DNA from: a phage
Strand: one strand, 5' to 3'
Length of the DNA: 64,000 nucleotides
Sequence record: PZ386948.1
Shown: in pieces, positions 7,867 to 48,315 of the stretch
How the letters are laid out: each line of letters opens with the position of its first letter
How positions within the stretch are numbered: position 1 is the stretch's first letter
The notes under the pieces: model-generated
What the model was told of the DNA's origin: nothing
What the model saw: the letters and a program-made list of their open reading frames with translations, nothing else
The model's database searches: none
Position numbers and translations under genes: made by a program

Positions 7867-8882
7867 TGTGTTGCCTCTACATATAGCTGATTCGCATATT
7901 GAATAAGTGCTTCACGGTCAGAATCAGTGATGTCTGGAATTGCATTAATGTATTCTTCCATCAACGTCTGAAGAGATTGAACTTCAACTTCTTCACTTTC
8001 ATCTGACTCGACAGAGTTATCAATTTTTGACACAACTCGTAATGAATGCACAACTTTTTCTAGTTCAGATTCGAACTTCGTCAGATTTTTGTCTACCTCA
8101 GTTACTATAACACGTACTGATAGATTTGTAAAATCTTTATAGTCAATTTTTCCTTTAAATGGATAATGAATTCTACGATGCCAGGTAGTATTGTTTGGAA
8201 TAAATTCCATTCGTTCTGTTTCTGTATCAAACATCCAGAACCCACGAGGGTCATTCTCGTCACCTGCAGTTAGTGTCCATGGTGTCCCAATATATCTGAC
8301 GTTAGCAGCCTCAGAGATAGTATGGAAGTGACCAGACCACACCTCTTTATAAGTCTTAAGGAAATCAGGTTCAAGACCGTGAGATTTCATTCCTTTATAA
8401 AAATAAAATCCATTCAGCTCCCAGTGACCAACACAAAAAGAAGCAGATGAAGTTTTGATGTGTTCAAGAATTTCACCAGTATTTTCTTCACACATCCAAG
8501 GAATTAAATCAATCAAACATCCGTCAAAATCTACTGTAGTAGGCTTATCATACACTTTAACATTAGGATATTTAGCCAAAAGCTCAGTAGAGGCATTTGG
8601 AGTTAAAGTATTTTTAAAGTGCATATCATGGTTTCCTACAACAGTATGTAGGGTAATACCAGCATCATCAAGCATTTGAACTATTTCACGAGCGAACTCC
8701 ATAGTTTTATGTGTGATTGCTTTTCGCACATCAAAAATATCACCATATTGAATCCATACAGTAATTCCATTTTTCTTAGAATATTCTATCGCTTGCTTAA
8801 TTCCATCAATTTGAATACCGCGAATCCACTCATCATCGGCTTTAACGCCTAAATGCCAATCACCTAAATTTAAAATTTTCAT
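7863..8882 (-). CDS. 47: recombination endonuclease subunit gp47 (Mre11/SbcD-like)
   Basis: 339 aa; calcineurin-like phosphoesterase motifs LGDWHLG, GDIFD, GNHD, GHWE, GHFH. Confidence 0.9.
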   Translation of the reverse strand: MKILNLGDWHLGVKADDEWIRGIQIDGIKQAIEYSKKNGITVWIQYGDIFDVRKAITHKTMEFAREIVQMLDDAGITLHTVVGNHDMHFKNTLTPNASTELLAKYPNVKVYDKPTTVDFDGCLIDLIPWMCEENTGEILEHIKTSSASFCVGHWELNGFYFYKGMKSHGLEPDFLKTYKEVWSGHFHTISEAANVRYIGTPWTLTAGDENDPRGFWMFDTETERMEFIPNNTTWHRRIHYPFKGKIDYKDFTNLSVRVIVTEVDKNLTKFESELEKVVHSLRVVSKIDNSVESDESEEVEVQSLQTLMEEYINAIPDITDSDREALIQYANQLYVEATQ

Positions 8883-17098: not shown

Positions 17099-17584
17099 TC
17101 AAGTATTGTAAAACATTTGATGCAATCGCTTATATTGCCGAATCTTTTGGTCAGAAAAAGAAATTTGGGTTTCAAGCCATTCAATATATTCTGCCGCAGC
17201 TTGCATCAAATTTCCTTCATAGCCATCGTTATTTTCTTGTGCAGCTAATTTAGCTAATGCGTATGAAATACGTTCACCCTGAAAATCGGCTTTAGGCTTC
17301 TGAACAACTTGATTAGTTCGCTCTACAACTTCTTCAATTTCGCCATTTTCGACTGATTCAGTATTCCACAAACACCAATACGTAATTGGCTTATCGTAGA
17401 TGTTAATAATCTTTCCATCAGAAAGTTCAATTTCAATAATTCCAGTATCAGGTTCTATATCATCTTCACATTCTTTTGCAAGTTCACGAACCTTAAAGAC
17501 AGTACCTGCACTAAGTTCCGGCCAGTAATTACACAGCCCTGTATCAGCACGATTAATTCTAAACCACTTATCTACTGTAATCAT
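17099..17584 (-). CDS. pin: PinA-like protein (Lon protease inhibitor), tentative
   Basis: 161 aa from internal Met; position after gene 49 as T4 pin; identity by synteny and length only. Confidence 0.45.
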   Translation of the reverse strand: MITVDKWFRINRADTGLCNYWPELSAGTVFKVRELAKECEDDIEPDTGIIEIELSDGKIINIYDKPITYWCLWNTESVENGEIEEVVERTNQVVQKPKADFQGERISYALAKLAAQENNDGYEGNLMQAAAEYIEWLETQISFSDQKIRQYKRLHQMFYNT

Positions 17585-18933: not shown

Positions 18934-19323
18934 TTAATCCAAAATATTATTAGGCATTGGTTGAACACTCACAAGTTCTTTAAAGAACTCAGTAGAGTCA
19001 GGCAATTTAACCATTTCCGGAGCATGCTTACTGAATTTATGTTTACATTGACGGCATTTATATTCAAGCTCTGGTTTACGCCAGTTAATCAATTGAACTT
19101 GTTCAGTACCGCATTCAGGGCAATTAGGAACGTTTTTAGAAGCTCTTTCACGTCGTTCAACCATAGCCATAATAGCATCCCATGCTGGAGGTTTAAAATC
19201 TAAATCGTCGCAGCCGTGAATCTTTCCACGCATTTCCATATCATCTTCCTCACCAGCCATAATAATTTTAATTAGACTAGAATTACTTGAAGCTGCAATA
19301 TCTTCTAATAAACGCTTTTTCAT
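18934..19323 (-). CDS. hypothetical zinc-ribbon protein
   Basis: 129 aa; CPECG...CRQCKH four-Cys arrangement. Confidence 0.45.
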
Positions 19324-20246
19324 TTCAGTACCTCAATAGCATCACGTAAACCATTTGCTTTGGCGGTTAAAGCCTTAAGAACTTTAGTATGCTCTTCAAT
19401 TTGTTTTTCAACTTCAATCAAACGAGCATTGAGATATTCGCGTTCTTCTTTCATAGTATCATTTCCATGATTAGATTTTGGTGTAGGTTTAAATTCACTA
19501 GGGTCCTTTAATTTAATAACAAATTTAGTTTCAAACAGTGAAAGACCATAATTCGTATTATCATCAAAGGATTTGACTACATCCATATCAGATAATAACA
19601 CGCGCAAATTATAAGCCAAAGAACTAATAGTTTCATTGTGTTTATTAGCTTCGCGTGGTTTCATATACGGAAGATTTTTATATATCTCATGCGGAGCGCA
19701 AACGATAATTGACAATTCAAATTGTCCATTCTGGGACGATGGAATGAATTTAGCCGTAACCCAGTCTTTTACATTCACATTAATAGTACGGTTATCACCA
19801 TGACAAAACAGTCTACGAGAATGCTTAAAAAGCATATTCACGTTATTATTGAATTCGTGTGAAAATTCACTAGCAAATTTTTCTTTACTATCTTTAGAAA
19901 ACCATTCTTCTAAATAAGTTCTTTTCACATCGTTAATAATATTAAATGTAACAACACTAGCATTTGATACATTAGTCTCAATGTAGCTTGGATACATAAA
20001 TTTTTTAACATTATTAACAGCTATCACAGAAGATAGTAATCGGGAACGTTTGAACCACTCGAGCAAAGAACCAAGAGAATGTGAATACGCATTTTGTGTA
20101 TCTTTACAAATATGGTTTTCCCATCCAATATAGTCTAAAAAATCACGAAGAATATTATTGATTACTGCTCTGTGTCCTATCTGATAATCACGATGTTTAG
20201 TAATAAGACTGTCAAAATAATCAATATAATGTTTACGAGTTTTCAT
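19320..20246 (-). CDS. hypothetical protein with C-terminal coiled coil
   Basis: 308 aa; C-terminal heptad-rich segment ...[33 protein letters not shown]. Confidence 0.5.
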   Translation of the reverse strand: MKTRKHYIDYFDSLITKHRDYQIGHRAVINNILRDFLDYIGWENHICKDTQNAYSHSLGSLLEWFKRSRLLSSVIAVNNVKKFMYPSYIETNVSNASVVTFNIINDVKRTYLEEWFSKDSKEKFASEFSHEFNNNVNMLFKHSRRLFCHGDNRTINVNVKDWVTAKFIPSSQNGQFELSIIVCAPHEIYKNLPYMKPREANKHNETISSLAYNLRVLLSDMDVVKSFDDNTNYGLSLFETKFVIKLKDPSEFKPTPKSNHGNDTMKEEREYLNARLIEVEKQIEEHTKVLKALTAKANGLRDAIEVLK

Positions 20247-20300
20247 GTTCTTCTCACTTGGTTAATGATTTATACTCCGAGCCATCCTTGGCTTTAAATT

Positions 20301-21299
20301 TTACTTAATTAACTGTAAAGCTTGTTCAAGACGATCCAAGCGATTGACAGATTCTTCCCAAATCCTTTTAGCCTGCTCATATTCTTTCTGCGCTTTATTA
20401 GAAATTTCTAGAACTTCTTTATAAGCTTTTTCTAATGCAATAACTTCTGGACGAATTTCTACCGGTTCAGGTGAATCATCAAGACATTCCATTAGTTCCT
20501 CAAGGGTAGTTTCTTCTTTAGGAGTATTCACAATTTCATCACATTTTTGTTGGTAAATTTCTTTACTAGTAGGTGAATAAGTACATTTCACTTCACGAAG
20601 ACTAACTACAATTTTATATCCTTCCCAACCGCATATATTCTTAAAAGGATATGTATGAATATTTTCTACTGTTTCCATACAGCCCAAAACCGCCTTTAAT
20701 TGATAAGTTATAGTGCTAGCAATTGAGAAAAATTTATTAATATTCTTTTGGTTAGCGTTTGGTGTAAAAAATCCATAATTCACAAAAATAGCTACTTTAT
20801 TTTCATCAAGCTCATATTCTTTTACGATAATCATATCAGAAGCCAAAGGATGAATTTGACGATAATCGCCATAACATAATTTAGAAGCTGATTTTAGAAT
20901 TTGTCCTTTGAAAAGTCTGAAATTACTAATCCAACGACGAGTAAAAATATTCTCAGGGGCTTCTTTATTAAGATGATAAGAATTAACATCACCGAACCAA
21001 TTATATCCTACTACATCTTTAGTTCGTTTAATTTCTTTCCCAAATTTACTAAGAATATCTCTGTTGACTAAGTATGAAAGAAGACGAGACCCTTTAAAGG
21101 TTTTCTTAATGTCATCTTTATCTACACGGCTAGAAATTTCACGAACTTCATGAATAAATTTGCCGGAAGAAACAATACTTGCATCAGTATTATTGAGCCA
21201 TTGATTGATAATAGAAATCACACTATTCTTACTAGACATAGGTTTAACTTTATCATCAATAACGCTATTGAATGATTTGATATATTCGTTACGAGTCAT
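20301..21299 (-). CDS. hypothetical protein with C-terminal coiled coil
   Basis: Start set at MTRNEYIKS (RBS GGAG and promoter-like TGGTATAAT upstream); C-terminal coiled coil. Confidence 0.5.
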   Translation of the reverse strand: MTRNEYIKSFNSVIDDKVKPMSSKNSVISIINQWLNNTDASIVSSGKFIHEVREISSRVDKDDIKKTFKGSRLLSYLVNRDILSKFGKEIKRTKDVVGYNWFGDVNSYHLNKEAPENIFTRRWISNFRLFKGQILKSASKLCYGDYRQIHPLASDMIIVKEYELDENKVAIFVNYGFFTPNANQKNINKFFSIASTITYQLKAVLGCMETVENIHTYPFKNICGWEGYKIVVSLREVKCTYSPTSKEIYQQKCDEIVNTPKEETTLEELMECLDDSPEPVEIRPEVIALEKAYKEVLEISNKAQKEYEQAKRIWEESVNRLDRLEQALQLIK

Positions 21300-21327
21300 A
21301 ATAATCTCCTCAGTAGAAAGTAAGAAC

Positions 21328-21358
21328 ATTATACCACATCCTTGTGGCAAAGTAAACT
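21328..21358 (-). promoter_or_regulatory. early-type promoter (GTTTAC ... TGGTATAAT)
   Basis: Minus-strand GTTTAC and extended -10 TGGTATAAT, then GGAG RBS and ATG at 21299. Confidence 0.5.
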
Positions 21359-22376
21359 AGTTCAGTGCATTTAGTGCATTGTTCAGTTTAGAACGTTGCT
21401 TCGTGAGATTTTTGACTTTTTCTTGAGCTTTTTCTAGCATCTTTTCAGCTTCTAGCACTTCATTGGTCGCTTTAACGAGTTCATCATCTACTGCCTTGAT
21501 AGACTTCTCAATCGCATCCGCGTGCCATTTTTCAACAGGTTTAAGACTCGGATTTTCAATAGGAAGAAAATTCACTTTATTGAATTTCCATGCATCTTTA
21601 TTACCTGAACTATACATCCAAAATTTAGGATCGTTTGATGAGTAATTAGATGAATTTAAGTTATCTTGCACTTCTTGCTTTTTCTCTTGCGGGACTTCGT
21701 CCTTTCTCAAAAAATCGTATTTAAATGAAACGATCATATCAAGTTCATATGTTGTTGTATGTTCCCAATTTCGCTCAAAACGAGGTAAAATCTTAGAATG
21801 AACAGCGGCAACAACATCCATATACTTAAATGCTTCTGTCAACTGCGATTTAAGGCATTCGCAAATTGAAAGAGAATTTTTTGTATTAGGTTTAAAGCTA
21901 ATTCGTGCAGTTCTATTATTTTCTTTTAATGGTCTTACTTCCATCTGAAGAGTATAACCATCAAATTTCAGGTTCTTTAAGTTAATATCAGAACCTTTTA
22001 ATCGACTAGCCGTCGACAAAATTTGCTTTAATTGTTTACGGAATAGAGCAATAAATCTCCATTCAATACGATAATGATTTGGATTGAAAAATCCAGATGA
22101 TAAATCGACCTTACTCTGACCAACACCTTGAACAAACAGAGGATTTTTATAATCAATAGTTTTACAGAAATCGGTGAGCTGCTCACGAGCAGTCATTTGT
22201 GTAATATATCCCGCTTTACTAAAATGACGTAACCATTCACTGCTATTCATATACTTAAAGTGAATGGAACTATTAACTCTATCAGGGTCTAAATTATTTT
22301 GGCACAAAAATGTCATAACATCACGAGTATAGCTGGCATTACGAACCATATCTTCAATTTGAGAACGAGTTTTCAT
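21357..22376 (-). CDS. hypothetical protein with C-terminal coiled coil
   Basis: 339 aa; C-terminus ...EAEKMLEKAQEKVKNLTKQRSKLNNALNALN. Confidence 0.5.
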   Translation of the reverse strand: MKTRSQIEDMVRNASYTRDVMTFLCQNNLDPDRVNSSIHFKYMNSSEWLRHFSKAGYITQMTAREQLTDFCKTIDYKNPLFVQGVGQSKVDLSSGFFNPNHYRIEWRFIALFRKQLKQILSTASRLKGSDINLKNLKFDGYTLQMEVRPLKENNRTARISFKPNTKNSLSICECLKSQLTEAFKYMDVVAAVHSKILPRFERNWEHTTTYELDMIVSFKYDFLRKDEVPQEKKQEVQDNLNSSNYSSNDPKFWMYSSGNKDAWKFNKVNFLPIENPSLKPVEKWHADAIEKSIKAVDDELVKATNEVLEAEKMLEKAQEKVKNLTKQRSKLNNALNALN

Positions 22377-22384
22377 AGTGTTCC

Positions 22385-23287
22385 TTAAGATTTAAGTAAA
22401 TCAACAATTTTAATTAATTTTTCACGCTCAGATTTAGCTTTACTACTCAATCCAGATAGTCTGAAAATTTCATCGTCATATTGTTGAATAGAAATATTCA
22501 GCTCTTCAATTTGCTTATTAAAATAATCAATTTGTTCAGAATGTTTTTCGTTACTACGAACTGGTACAGGTTTTGTAGGCAATTTAGTTGAACTGGATTC
22601 ATCCGGGCGATAAATTAAAATACAACTTGAACCAATAGGGCATTTAGCACCAGATGAATATTCTAACGTTCCAGCTTCTTTTAAAACTTCAAAAGCTAAA
22701 CAGAGATGATGCCCCATATTAACATAATCTGTAGAGCGAGCTCTGATATAATAATCATCGCCGCGAATACTAAATTTAAAGCATTTAAGGTCTTCTGTAT
22801 TATTGGTCTTAAAAATCATTTGTTTATCTAGACCTTTAGCTAATCGAGCGCCTAATGCTAATAATCGTCGTTGATTTTCCCACAAATCCGCAATCATTTG
22901 ATCGAATGATAATTTCGGCATTAGTCGACCATAAAGGTCATATCCTTTATTATAATTGCGAAGGATTTCACTCGCATTAATACGAGACAACGCTCCAATT
23001 TTATTAAGGGCTTTCATAATGCGATTAGATAAACCCATTCCAGACCCGTTTGTTCGTTGTAAATGTTTATCTAATCCAAACCCAATATCAACTTTAAATT
23101 TATCTAAAATTTCAGCATGAACATCTCTGTCAATAACATTCAAATCCAAAGTTGGGTTAAATCTATGAAAAAATTTATCTGGCTCTCCACGACGAAGTAC
23201 AGTCCATTCATTTAATTTTTTATTAACTAAAGATTTAATTACTGCATTGACATTATTAATTACTACTGACATATTTTTCTCACTCAA
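22385..23287 (-). CDS. hypothetical protein with C-terminal coiled coil
   Basis: 300 aa; C-terminus ...IEELNISIQQYDDEIFRLSGLSSKAKSEREKLIKIVDLLKS. Confidence 0.5.
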   Translation of the reverse strand: MSEKNMSVVINNVNAVIKSLVNKKLNEWTVLRRGEPDKFFHRFNPTLDLNVIDRDVHAEILDKFKVDIGFGLDKHLQRTNGSGMGLSNRIMKALNKIGALSRINASEILRNYNKGYDLYGRLMPKLSFDQMIADLWENQRRLLALGARLAKGLDKQMIFKTNNTEDLKCFKFSIRGDDYYIRARSTDYVNMGHHLCLAFEVLKEAGTLEYSSGAKCPIGSSCILIYRPDESSSTKLPTKPVPVRSNEKHSEQIDYFNKQIEELNISIQQYDDEIFRLSGLSSKAKSEREKLIKIVDLLKS

Positions 23288-23688
23288 TTTTCAATTTTAC
23301 TAAATACACAGAATATGATGGAAAAGACTATATAAGCACAACACACAGATTGAACTAATACCATTCCAAAGAACCAAACAATATTATCAAACAATGTCTG
23401 TTTTACGTCGAAAGGACGTAAACTTACAGTAATATTATCGCCTTTTTCTATTGATGAATACATCTCTGGTGAAATATATTCGCTAAATCTATAACCGTCA
23501 TTGAGTTCATATACGGCAATAAACGATAAACTAGACCCCTTTCCTTGAGTTCCTGTAAGGGTATTAACTACAGTAACATCATAATCTTTATAATGCATAT
23601 AATCATTAATTGCGTAATAACCATATGCAACTACTACACATAAACAACATATCAATAAATTCAATCTTTTAATTATCAACTGTTTCAT
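23284..23688 (-). CDS. membrane protein (two predicted TM segments)
   Basis: 134 aa; hydrophobic N- and C-terminal stretches. Confidence 0.45.
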   Translation of the reverse strand: MKQLIIKRLNLLICCLCVVVAYGYYAINDYMHYKDYDVTVVNTLTGTQGKGSSLSFIAVYELNDGYRFSEYISPEMYSSIEKGDNITVSLRPFDVKQTLFDNIVWFFGMVLVQSVCCAYIVFSIIFCVFSKIEN

Positions 23689-23743
23689 AATAATCTCAAT
23701 TAAAAGGGCTTAGAACCATTATACCATCCTTGGTATAAAGCGG

Positions 23744-24271
23744 TTATGCGAGTACCGTCTTTAACCGTTCTTCAAACTTCCGAAGAGTATTCTGGCGTTC
23801 AGCTCTTTGCTTTTTGTAAGTTTCAATACGCTCTGAAATGAGAGTGTATCGTTCATTTACTGATTCTTTCATAAAATCAGGAATTTCACGAGAAGCTTTA
23901 ATCTCATCAAATTTATCAATAACAGCTTGCTCTTCAGCAATTAAGTTATCATACATCAAAATATCTTTCTTGATGAACTCAATATCTTCTTGAGTTACAC
24001 GAGATAACTTAGATGCTTTATCCTTTTTGTACTGTTCGTTAGTATCACGAGACCAGTGTAATGTACGATTTTTATTCGTATTCTTGTAAATTTCTACAAT
24101 ACCAATCTCATCAATAATAACGATCCAATTCCAACGAGATTTGTAAATTTGTCCTCCGTCAACCGTGATTTCACCTCCGATTGAGATGTCATTAAAGAAC
24201 TTGCTTTGTGCTTCTGATTTAAATTTACCATCGTTGTAATTTACCAGGTTGAAAATATCTTTAGCGTTCAT
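23744..24271 (-). CDS. hypothetical protein
   Basis: Start set at MNAKDIF (GGAGG RBS); upstream ORF extension is read-through of promoter repeat. Confidence 0.45.
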   Translation of the reverse strand: MNAKDIFNLVNYNDGKFKSEAQSKFFNDISIGGEITVDGGQIYKSRWNWIVIIDEIGIVEIYKNTNKNRTLHWSRDTNEQYKKDKASKLSRVTQEDIEFIKKDILMYDNLIAEEQAVIDKFDEIKASREIPDFMKESVNERYTLISERIETYKKQRAERQNTLRKFEERLKTVLA

Positions 24272-47010: not shown

Positions 47011-47735
47011 TATAGTACCTTTAGTGTATTTTTAATTTTAGAAAAAAGTTCTTCAAGAGAACCATCGTTTGTAATTACTAAATCGCCATCACGAATTGGC
47101 AATCCAGCTTCTGTAATATGTGTATCATTGGATTTTTGACCAGGACGAACTACATGAATTACTGTAGCACCCATCGCCCTAGCCGCATCCATTTCATGAT
47201 CTTGACGGGTATCAGGAACGATATAATAATCATAACCTGAGTTAAATTTATCAAGATAATCTAAAGCAAATAATTTTACCCAGTACATGCGGTCGAAGTT
47301 ATTAACAATCAAATCCGTACCTAGGGCTTGCATCAGACGACGGACTGACCATTGATCTTCAATATTATTTATAACGTCAATAATCTTGTTAAATGCTACG
47401 GAATTAACTGATTCTTGTCCTTCGTCATCAAAAACAAACACACCCTTAATTGGGCTTTTACCGTTAAGATAGCAAAATGCTTGTTCCATAATCGTGATTA
47501 CTTCTGATTTAGTCAGATTTAAATTAGTCTCACGATCATAGTCAATTCCTTCAAACTCTTTACGAGTTAAGCAAGGATAGTCAGTGTTTGCTGCAAATAC
47601 TCCCCATGCATAAGCCAATGCATCCTTAATAGGACCAGCAAGTTGGTATTTAACTGCAGAATAATTGCTCATGATAAAATCAGCAGTAGTATCTTTTCCA
47701 CTACGCTTTACACCGCTTAAAAAGATTAGTTTCAT
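47010..47735 (-). CDS. 1: deoxynucleoside monophosphate kinase gp1
   Basis: Start set at MKLIFLSGVKRSGKDT (P-loop) giving 241 aa as T4 gp1. Confidence 0.85.
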
Positions 47736-47784
47736 GTGTTTCTCCTCAAATTTAATTAAGATTATAACACACAAAACTGAAGCA

Positions 47785-48315
47785 TTAAACTTCTGCTATA
47801 ATTTTACCATCTTTTTCTACTTGAAAATACGTATAAGGAATCGTAGCTGTACATACTAAAGCCGGGTCTGAATCTTCTGTGTAGCTAAATTCTACTTCAG
47901 ATAGGTCAGAAACCCAAGGCTTATAAAAATTTATTGACATCACGATTTCAGTTTTGCTATTATCTAAGATGTAAAGCGTAATGTACTCAGGACCTGTTTT
48001 TTGGGCAGTATTTTCACCTGTAAGATAGTTGCTAGTTCCTAGCATCCATTCATACATTCCTATCCACGACTTAAGTTCTTCATCAACTATAAATCTCACA
48101 ATGAGTGGATCATACTCAAATGTAACACCTGGACGTTGTGCTCTACCCAGTCCAAACGGCCCAGTCACGGTATCAGTAACAGGTATTCTAATTCCTGGAA
48201 TAGGAACTGACTGAGCATTTAAAGTAAAAGCAGATGTAGTATTACTATGTGGTATTGATACTACAAAGTTAGTTGTATTTGCTTGGTTAAAAATTTGTTG
48301 CAGAGCTTGCGACAT
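47785..48315 (-). CDS. 3: tail completion / sheath stabiliser gp3
   Basis: Start set at internal Met MSQALQQIF giving 176 aa; synteny 1-3-2-4. Confidence 0.7.
   Translation of the reverse strand: MSQALQQIFNQANTTNFVVSIPHSNTTSAFTLNAQSVPIPGIRIPVTDTVTGPFGLGRAQRPGVTFEYDPLIVRFIVDEELKSWIGMYEWMLGTSNYLTGENTAQKTGPEYITLYILDNSKTEIVMSINFYKPWVSDLSEVEFSYTEDSDPALVCTATIPYTYFQVEKDGKIIAEV

Follow-up and report, generated by a model that had tools for sequence, protein, structure and literature searches.

The window, as we call the whole 64,000-nucleotide stretch of DNA that was analysed (PZ386948.1), contains a region that is 100% identical to DNA of Shigella phage CM8, a Tequatrovirus. Four tandem open reading frames lie in this region on the minus strand; the first three, of 308, 332 and 339 aa, have the coordinates given in the initial annotation. 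Comparison with the region downstream of nrdC in T4, which that annotation had suggested, showed that by sequence they are the nrdC.3, nrdC.4, nrdC.5 and nrdC.6 genes known from T4-like phages, and the window proteins share 85-92% identity with T4 nrdC.3-nrdC.6. nrdC.3 (19320..20246) is the 3'-most paralog, with 92.5% identity to T4 nrdC.3, and it matches phrog_1435 (E 1.3e-100), the same PHROG that holds nrdC.4 (20301..21299; 90.1% identity to T4 nrdC.4). The start codon of nrdC.4 is the ATG at 21299, with GAGGAG upstream, and PF26897 is precomputed on nrdC.4 homologs. nrdC.5 (21357..22376) is the ortholog of the T4 anti-Dsr1 gene: it shares 92.1% identity with T4 nrdC.5 over 340 columns, holds the equal position in the array, and matches the Pfam family DUF7235 (PF23882) end to end (E 1.6e-125). 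nrdC.6 (22385..23272, 295 aa counted from the ATG at 23272) completes the array, and PF26899 is precomputed on its homologs. PHROGs 1435, 2351 and 2257 match the array proteins with E 1e-100 or better. The fourth reading frame had been annotated as 22385-23287; the frame exists, but its start is most likely the ATG at 23272 rather than the TTG at 23287, since GAGTGAGA lies a few bases upstream of this ATG and the homologs begin with MSVVINN.

Upstream of nrdC.4, at 21328..21356 on the minus strand, we found the promoter-like site GTTTACTTTGCCACAAGGATGTGGTATAAT, with 10/12 consensus matches and an extended -10 TG, which we take to be similar to the T4 early-promoter type. The promoter scan overall gave no enrichment over shuffles, and the site is therefore regarded only as a candidate promoter.

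The array is directly followed by the zinc-ribbon gene nrdC.2 (18934..19323, minus strand), the ATG of which overlaps the stop codon of nrdC.3 (ATGA); its match to Zn_ribbon_8 (E 6.6e-6) is under the Pfam cut-off. In 21/21 loci from seven genera an nrdC.2 homolog comes immediately after the 3'-most family member and overlaps it by 1-4 nt, including single-copy loci (20 loci counted by ORF calls, and JD18 by its annotated start). From this arrangement, nrdC.2 may possibly be a functional partner of the family. Within the array only the last copy is coupled to it. An obligatory link is ruled out, because nrdC.2-like genes occur without a family member in Proteus phage phiP4-3, in an Aeromonas T4-like phage and in Serratia phage MyoSmar; the 301-aa neighbour of the Aeromonas gene is not a family member.

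The C-terminal heptad helix

Each of the four proteins consists of an alpha/beta body of ~220 residues, a linker, and a C-terminal amphipathic heptad helix of ~50 residues. The linker begins near a conserved Pro, is 15-55 residues long, and is poorly conserved and modelled with low confidence. Heptads were scored with a home-made, crude measure, which is not COILS or MARCOIL, and the best 28-residue window of each protein was compared with those of 300 composition-preserving shuffles. In 4/4 proteins the best window lay in the C-terminal region. The helix of nrdC.3 (coding region 19323..19463, aa 262-308) scored 9.0, which 0/300 shuffles reached, and that of nrdC.4 (20304..20450, aa 284-332, ending in RLEQALQLIK) scored 8.7, reached by 3/300. 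For nrdC.5 (21360..21530, aa 283-339, ending in KLNNALNALN) the score was 10.0, again reached by 0/300, and for nrdC.6, with helices at aa 242-271 and 277-294 of 295 (22391..22549, ending in KLIKIVDLLKS), it was 9.8 just upstream of the C-terminal end, and its best window was reached by 0/300 shuffles; all four coding regions are on the minus strand. When the 83 likely window genes with products of 80 aa or more were scored, a C-terminal heptad score of at least 8 was found only for pin, nrdC.3, nrdC.4, nrdC.5 and nrdC.8, and the positive control, the Rad50-like gp46, gave a high internal score.

An a/d register without interruption runs through residues 262-308 of nrdC.3, 284-332 of nrdC.4, 283-339 of nrdC.5 and 247-300 of nrdC.6, giving 6.5-8 heptads per protein, where a coiled coil takes at least four unbroken heptads in a helix. 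These stretches are 37-40% charged with no more than one Pro or Gly in each, and nrdC.5 has Ala at three d positions in a row. The helices of nrdC.4 and nrdC.5 align with each other in a profile alignment. According to the AF2 models, the form of the tail differs: in nrdC.5 it is predicted as one long helix (283-338, pLDDT 84-92), and in nrdC.6 (pLDDT 77) as a helix-turn-helix hairpin. A short charged heptad segment at the C-terminus, as initially proposed, is thus found in all four ORFs, beats the shuffles, and is a confident AF2 helix in nrdC.5 and nrdC.6, but its length is about 47-57 residues and not the ~35-40 that had been given.

The tail also stands out in conservation. The terminal motif KLxxA[LIV]xxLK, in its broader form [KR]Lxx[A/I][LIV]xxL[KN], occurred in 51/331 ORFs, 50 of them family members. 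In divergent orthologs of nrdC.6 the conservation was 65% for the tail vs 38% for the body, and in those of nrdC.4 it was 58-61% vs 38-52%. By sequence, no other part of the nrdC.3-nrdC.6 proteins is as well conserved as the C-terminal helical module. Non-core positions of the helix are conserved as well, for example DDEIFRLSGL in nrdC.6, which suggests that the tail is more specialised than an ordinary coiled coil. In the T4 reference, nrdC.6 is without the tail owing to a frameshift, suggesting that the tail of nrdC.6 is dispensable, at least in laboratory T4.

Searches with known families gave little. The prefoldin models stayed below their cut-offs (PF02996 against nrdC.3, 11.7 bits with a cut-off of 23.2; TIGR00293 against nrdC.8, 12.8 with a cut-off of 53.9), among the PADLOC models only BrxC was matched, weakly and as a coiled coil, by the tail of nrdC.4 (E 0.007, 12 bits), and the NCBIfam search returned nothing meaningful. 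Compared with the prefoldin alpha/beta hairpins, to which the sequence matches are far under the family cut-offs (E 0.1-0.26), the likeness is limited to a generic antiparallel helical hairpin; the prefoldin beta-hairpin core is missing here, and nrdC.5, unlike prefoldin, is modelled with a single helix.

Relationship of the four bodies

The four proteins had been described as having different globular bodies. Pairwise BLASTP of the bodies gave similarity only for nrdC.3 and nrdC.4 (24.5% identity over 200 aa, E 4e-5), and BLASTP together with shuffle tests detected only the nrdC.3/nrdC.4 and nrdC.4/nrdC.5 pairs. Such pairwise tests were too insensitive, and profile comparison was therefore used. 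Family HMMs run against the locus ORFs gave no cross-family match except nrdC.3/nrdC.4, and hhalign with narrow family alignments was not significant (E 0.003-0.1). With broadened profiles, hhalign aligned nrdC.3/4 with nrdC.5 over 244 columns (E 2.6e-5), and direct family-profile comparison of nrdC.6 reached only E 0.02-0.04.

Bridging proteins were then considered together with the predicted folds. P0234, P0237 and P0238 match both the nrdC.3/4 HMM (1e-7 to 3e-12) and the nrdC.5 HMM (2e-9 to 5e-9), and P0238 also matches the nrdC.6 HMM (9.8e-6). Enterobacter phage IME523, which has the gene in single copy, encodes a protein that matches all three HMMs (2.8e-9, 6.5e-6 and 2.4e-4). The AF2 models of nrdC.5 and nrdC.6 have a common order of elements, aa-bb-aa-bb-a-bb-linker-helix. 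In BFVD, the nrdC.5 model matched the nrdC.6 protein of Sf25 (E 7.6e-4), and proteins of Mineola, fHe-Yen9-01 and Merlin were matched by both the nrdC.5 and the nrdC.6 models. nrdC.6 is the weakest link in the paralogy, with moderate statistics; it is rescued by the bridging sequences and by fold matches with low TM-scores (0.25-0.5). Taken together, the profile, bridging-sequence and predicted-fold evidence overturned the description of the bodies as different and showed, at the level of sequence and model, that they are homologous and that nrdC.3-nrdC.6 are old, strongly diverged tandem paralogs along their whole length. The common tail is therefore explained by inheritance through whole-gene tandem duplication and is not a shuffled module. 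The proposal that the four genes are a family was correct: they are homologs that share a conserved C-terminal helical module. On the same sequence and model evidence, the three separately filed Pfam families PF26897, PF23882 (DUF7235) and PF26899 belong to one superfamily, and this makes counter-defence a candidate role for nrdC.3, nrdC.4 and nrdC.6.

The DNA of the paralogs was also compared for shared repeats that would indicate a recent duplication or gene conversion, and only short chance matches were seen. nrdC.8 was considered as a fifth, truncated member and rejected (hhalign E 0.05-0.24, with only weak Foldseek matches to a 175-aa KPV15 protein). None of the solved structures or known families matched the body of nrdC.5 or nrdC.6, and similarity to DSAD1 or to solved anti-defence proteins was not found for it.

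Distribution and possible function

By sequence, the nrdC.3-nrdC.6 superfamily is confined to T4-like phages; a viral-contig collection searched with the nrdC.4 alignment yielded only 14 loci, all T4-like. Marfavirus, Jiaodavirus and Kanagawavirus carry one copy; Mosigvirus, Dhakavirus and Gaprivervirus carry three. Tequatrovirus has four, nrdC.3 being a duplicate of the nrdC.3/4 branch specific to this genus; the order of the array is constant across genera. The nrdC.3 alleles fall into two classes (at least 90% and ~60% identity), and fusions, a split gene, an internal duplication and deletions of family members occur in nature. Copy-number variation, the allele classes and the fusions, split and duplication resemble an arms-race signature, which we count in favour of diversifying counter-defence.

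T4 nrdC.5 counteracts Dsr1, a SIR2-type defence protein, and when it is expressed in trans, a deletion mutant again forms plaques on cells that carry dsr1 (Srikant, Guegler and Laub 2022, PMC9391042). In that work nrdC.5 alone, from a plasmid, rescued the mutant, and the text is silent on the mutant's remaining neighbours (PMC9391042). DSR1 was still called 'poorly characterized' in 2026. Our literature search found only PMC9391042 on nrdC.5, and nothing on nrdC.3, nrdC.4 or nrdC.6.

The reading we lean towards takes the paralogs for a counter-defence family in the course of diversification, with variable bodies and an oligomerising or docking tail; of this we infer the functional part. The fast-evolving bodies would be stoichiometric inhibitors, binding different immune proteins of the host and neutralising them, and the conserved tail would assemble the proteins into coiled-coil oligomers, giving avidity against oligomeric targets, or alternatively would attach them to one common partner. 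A more tentative extension is an expandable counter-defence toolkit, in which an ancestral single-copy gene, translationally coupled to nrdC.2, gave rise to three or four copies in the E. coli T4-like phages, each body having diverged to act against a different immune sensor (Dsr1 for nrdC.5) and the unusually conserved tail serving as the common assembly or docking device needed by all copies. If this toolkit were real, nrdC.3, nrdC.4 and nrdC.6 would inhibit other defence systems in ways not yet discovered, and a common mechanism would lie in the tail, possibly with nrdC.2.

Other arrangements were weighed against the same data. The tail might dock to one common partner, either from the host or the nrdC.2 protein that is translated along with it, with no self-association; in that case the bodies would serve as adaptors or effectors that can be exchanged for one another. 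Conservation of the helix surface positions and of the extreme C-terminal tip across paralogs and genera points this way, as do a tail conservation that exceeds that of the body and the constant succession of last member and nrdC.2, even at single-copy loci; with nrdC.2 as the partner, however, both the restriction of the coupling to the last copy and the phages that carry nrdC.2-like genes alone are hard to explain, and we hold this docking to be possible but rather doubtful. It is unlikely that the paralogs join through their tails into one hetero-oligomeric complex acting as a unit. The related tails with an unbroken register in all four, the constant array order, and the probable joint expression of genes that are adjacent and on the same strand would suit such a complex, but three genera have a single copy, copy number varies, the array tolerates deletions and fusions in nature, nrdC.6 of the T4 reference is tailless, and the plasmid-borne nrdC.5 alone rescued the T4 mutant, the remaining neighbours of which are not stated there (PMC9391042).

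A very unlikely proposal, drawn by analogy, is that the body has a tail-terminator or tail-completion fold, imitates a tail protein of the phage and acts as a decoy occupying the sensor domain of Dsr1, in the way that DSAD1 competes with the tail tube protein on DSR2. In BFVD the nrdC.5 model weakly matched several tail completion, tail terminator and connector proteins (E 5e-3 to 3e-2 over 90-190 columns), and DSR2 is reported to be activated by a tail tube protein and blocked by DSAD1. Least probable of all is that unrelated bodies each gained the same coiled-coil module by domain shuffling. The lack of pairwise BLASTP similarity between bodies other than nrdC.3/nrdC.4 would agree with it, as would the metagenomic protein P0236, an unrelated N-terminus on an exact copy of the nrdC.5 tail, but the evidence for body homology given above contradicts it. 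P0236 was rejected as evidence of a mobile tail module, being a singleton and a probable assembly chimera, since it is known from one contig of 803 bp only and no phage record matches its N-terminal part.

Comparison with known systems

The genes themselves have long been annotated and the novelty is modest; no new mechanism is demonstrated, and the gain is a testable hypothesis. T4-like counter-defence genes set host range, and most are still undiscovered. If nrdC.3, nrdC.4 and nrdC.6 are paralogs of the anti-Dsr1 gene, they become three candidates against other E. coli defence systems. The family architecture of fast-evolving body, flexible linker and better-conserved tail may guide the search for a mechanism, with the conserved, translationally coupled nrdC.2 flagged as a possible partner.

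The closest known system is T4 NrdC.5 (DUF7235), for which the T4 protein alone has been tested, and genetically only. The nrdC.5 protein of the window is its ortholog, and the three neighbours are paralogs with the same body-linker-tail architecture, although they are filed in the separate Pfam families PF26897 and PF26899. DSAD1 is, like nrdC.5, a phage protein that permits infection despite a defence-associated sirtuin, and its reported mechanism is direct binding to the defence protein DSR2. The T4 genes dmd-tifA-adfA have been proposed as an 'anti-TA island' (PMC9391042). Clusters of this type resemble the array in being made of non-essential early-region genes that are clustered, variable between related phages and tied to host range. 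However, dmd-tifA-adfA encode unrelated inhibitors, whereas nrdC.3-nrdC.6 are one family amplified in tandem, and unlike those clusters the array has a tail whose conservation exceeds that of the body presumed to bind the target.

Four genes of the nrdC region

Nucleotide comparison found complete identity (100%) to the Tequatrovirus Shigella phage CM8 (MK962750.1) over window positions 19000-24000, and 90-97% identity to hundreds of T4-like phages, in which the genes of this interval are named nrdC.2 to nrdC.8. Endonuclease VII and NrdC thioredoxin are among the ORFs upstream of the array. All four ORFs proposed in the initial annotation were found, on the minus strand, and the comparison it suggested with the T4 nrdC-downstream region resolves directly: they are nrdC.3 (19320-20246), nrdC.4 (20301-21299), nrdC.5 (21357-22376) and nrdC.6 (22385-23272), with 92.5%, 90.1%, 92.1% and 85.4% identity to T4 reference NC_000866.4, respectively. 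The genes themselves are already known. For nrdC.6 the ORF stood, while its TTG start at 23287 was replaced by the likelier ATG at 23272 (homologs begin MSVVINN). The nrdC.4 start (ATG 21299, minus strand) is preceded by GAGGAG and a promoter-like site, GTTTACTTTGCCACAAGGATGTGGTATAAT. The 54-nt spacer from nrdC.4 to nrdC.3 holds a stem-loop, AAGCCAAGGATGGCT, followed by TATAAAT (20273-20294, minus strand), and by scan the spacer around it was terminator-like on the opposite strand only. In many GenBank entries, homologs of nrdC.2-nrdC.7 bear the label "thioredoxin", apparently inherited from the nrdC.x gene name, and thioredoxin models matched none of the proteins so labelled.

Full-length paralogy of nrdC.3 to nrdC.6

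The four ORFs had been described as a family with a common C-terminal module, which was right, but on different globular bodies, which was wrong: PHROG, BLASTP, hhalign, bridging proteins, AlphaFold2 (AF2) models and BFVD tie the bodies together. nrdC.3 and nrdC.4 matched one and the same PHROG and were aligned by BLASTP over 200 residues (E 4e-5). With narrow family profiles, hhalign scores were suggestive only. Profiles were broadened with orthologs from RB69, JS98, P479 and viral contigs, and the broadened nrdC.3/4 profile matched the nrdC.5 profile with E 2.6e-5 over 244 columns; nrdC.6 was borderline (E 0.018-0.037), always through the same two helices. Among 1.84 billion representative proteins, only 18 clusters were found by profile search. 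Three of these (P0234, P0237 and P0238), which come from Klebsiella T4-like phages and metagenomes, matched both the nrdC.3/4 and nrdC.5 HMMs (1e-7 to 3e-12), P0238 matched the nrdC.6 HMM too (9.8e-6), and the lone family protein of Enterobacter phage IME523 matched all three HMMs (2.8e-9, 6.5e-6 and 2.4e-4).

The AF2 models of nrdC.5 and nrdC.6 shared one element order: a helix pair and a strand pair, the same again, then a helix, a strand pair, the linker and the tail. A BFVD search with the nrdC.5 model retrieved Sf25 nrdC.6 (E 7.6e-4). The two models shared matches to proteins of phages Mineola, fHe-Yen9-01 and Merlin, and everything they matched at E <1e-3 was a T4-like phage protein. The alignment that also places the nrdC.4 tail against the nrdC.5 tail, taken with the nrdC.6 sequence, revealed motifs common to all four: an N-terminal M(K)TR, [FL]xK[SG]xxL[ST]...[NA]xxxLxx[FY]xK, FxxxxxxILKxAS[KR]L..GD, and a Pro immediately before the tail. 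We conclude that nrdC.3, nrdC.4, nrdC.5 and nrdC.6 are full-length paralogs, nrdC.6 being the least secure link. This links three Pfam families of unknown function, a result of modest novelty that provides candidate functions for three T4 genes.

The order nrdC.6, nrdC.5, nrdC.4 is fixed, and nrdC.3 is an addition in Tequatroviruses, where it forms two allele classes. Three copies are present in RB69 and in JS98-like and P479-like phages, and a single one in Marfa, JD18 and IME523. DNA-level repeats between array copies were absent, indicating that the duplications are old. In-frame natural fusions, in which nrdC.4 is deleted and the nrdC.5 N-terminal part continues into the nrdC.3 C-terminal part, were found in P0056, where the junction lies at the similar short peptides KFNKVN and FNNNVN, and in phage ACG-C40 (JN986846.1 / NC_019399.1, about 47512-47923). 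In the nrdC.6 protein of Shigella phage Sf25 (P0120, 378 aa), ~83 residues spanning the C-terminal portion of the body and the start of the tail are duplicated in tandem, so that IRAHSTDYVN...NKQIEEL occurs twice. In one IMG/VR Tequatrovirus genome (L010, 5971-7003) nrdC.4 is broken into two ORFs (193 and 158 aa), apparently through a frameshift or as a pseudogene. P0236 (173 aa, from an 803-bp ENA contig) joins a tail 100% identical to that of CM8 nrdC.5 to an unrelated 120-residue N-terminus with no match in the phage collection, and is probably an assembly chimera.

Conserved C-terminal heptad tails

The tails were examined with a simple home-written heptad score (best 28-residue window, tested against 300 shuffles). 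The best window lay in the C-terminal region of all four proteins, and its score was attained by 3/300 shuffles for nrdC.4 and 0/300 for each of nrdC.3, nrdC.5 and nrdC.6. Among the 83 likely genes in the window, only pin, nrdC.3, nrdC.4, nrdC.5 and nrdC.8 reached a C-terminal score of at least 8; nrdC.6 scored 9.8 slightly upstream of the protein end, and Rad50-like gp46 scored high internally, as expected. The a/d register was unbroken over 47-57 residues in the four tails, with 37-40% charged residues. The AF2 model of nrdC.5 showed a low-confidence linker at 225-281 and then one helix at 283-338 (pLDDT 84-92), and that of nrdC.6 a linker at 227-241 followed by helices at 242-271 and 277-294. 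The heptad C-termini noticed initially are therefore real, although longer than the 35-40 residues first estimated.

The Lon-inhibitor gene pin (17099-17584, minus strand; score 8.1) was the sole gene in the window outside the nrdC cluster with this C-terminal trait. nrdC.8 (175 aa; 23744-24271, minus strand) has a heptad-like helical C-terminus (score 8.8, 2/300 shuffles), and homology to the nrdC.3-nrdC.6 superfamily was not detectable by hhalign (E 0.05-0.24).

The tails end in L-x-x-[AIV]-[LIV]-x-x-[LIV]-[KN], a pattern defined post hoc from the four proteins themselves and matched by 51 of 331 ORFs (drawn from the window and 17 loci, 18 sources in all); 50 of the 51 are family members, from all branches. 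It recurs in distant members as TQRGKLLRAIQALK, AQRAKLLHAMQELRK and LQRDALVNAIKEFK. Conservation was higher in tail than in body among divergent orthologs of nrdC.6 (65% vs 38%) and nrdC.4 (58-61% vs 38-52%), and in one mid-distance relative of nrdC.5 (61% vs 38%). Non-core positions were also conserved, such as PVPVRSNEKH and DDEIFRLSGL in nrdC.6, a pattern seldom expected of a plain coiled coil and suggestive of a specific interaction. The nrdC.5 tail has Ala in three consecutive d positions, which fits tight, possibly antiparallel, packing and serves as a lead rather than a result.

Compared with CM8, nrdC.6 of the T4 reference (about 8067-8140 in the T4 locus; window about 22470-22480) has a single-A deletion, GAGCTG-ATATT instead of GAGCTGAATATT. 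The resulting frameshift leaves the annotated 275-aa protein ending in ...IFLFNNMMMKFSDYLD, without the conserved tail, while the next frame keeps ISIQQYDDEIFRLSGLSSKAKSEREKLIKIVDLLKS coding intact. The deletion arose either as a recent frameshift in a laboratory strain or as an error of sequencing.

Possible roles in counter-defence

The sole experimental datum on family function is that, with T4 nrdC.5 supplied from a plasmid, an evolved T4 deletion mutant again plates on cells carrying ECOR17 dsr1 (PMC9391042); the literature collection searched yielded no later work, and DSR1 was still termed poorly characterized in 2026. Relatives of the body were absent from solved structures, PADLOC and NCBIfam. 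On the best-supported model these genes form a diversifying counter-defence family, in which the bodies would bind targets and the conserved tail would serve as an assembly or docking device. The paralogy and architecture were demonstrated here; an anti-defence role of nrdC.3, nrdC.4 and nrdC.6 and the role of the tail are inferred.

That the tail is a docking element is a serious alternative. The nrdC.2 zinc-ribbon gene (CPEC...CRQC; 18934-19323, minus strand), whose start lies inside the nrdC.3 stop codon (ATGA), directly follows the last family member with a 1-4 nt overlap in 21/21 loci (L001-L021, seven genera), single-copy loci included; however, nrdC.2-like genes occur without the family in Proteus, Aeromonas and MyoSmar phages. 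The paralogs are unlikely to form an obligate hetero-complex, because some genera are single-copy and nrdC.6 of the T4 reference is tail-less. It is highly improbable that the proteins would act as tail-protein decoys, a role to which weak fold matches pointed for nrdC.5 only.
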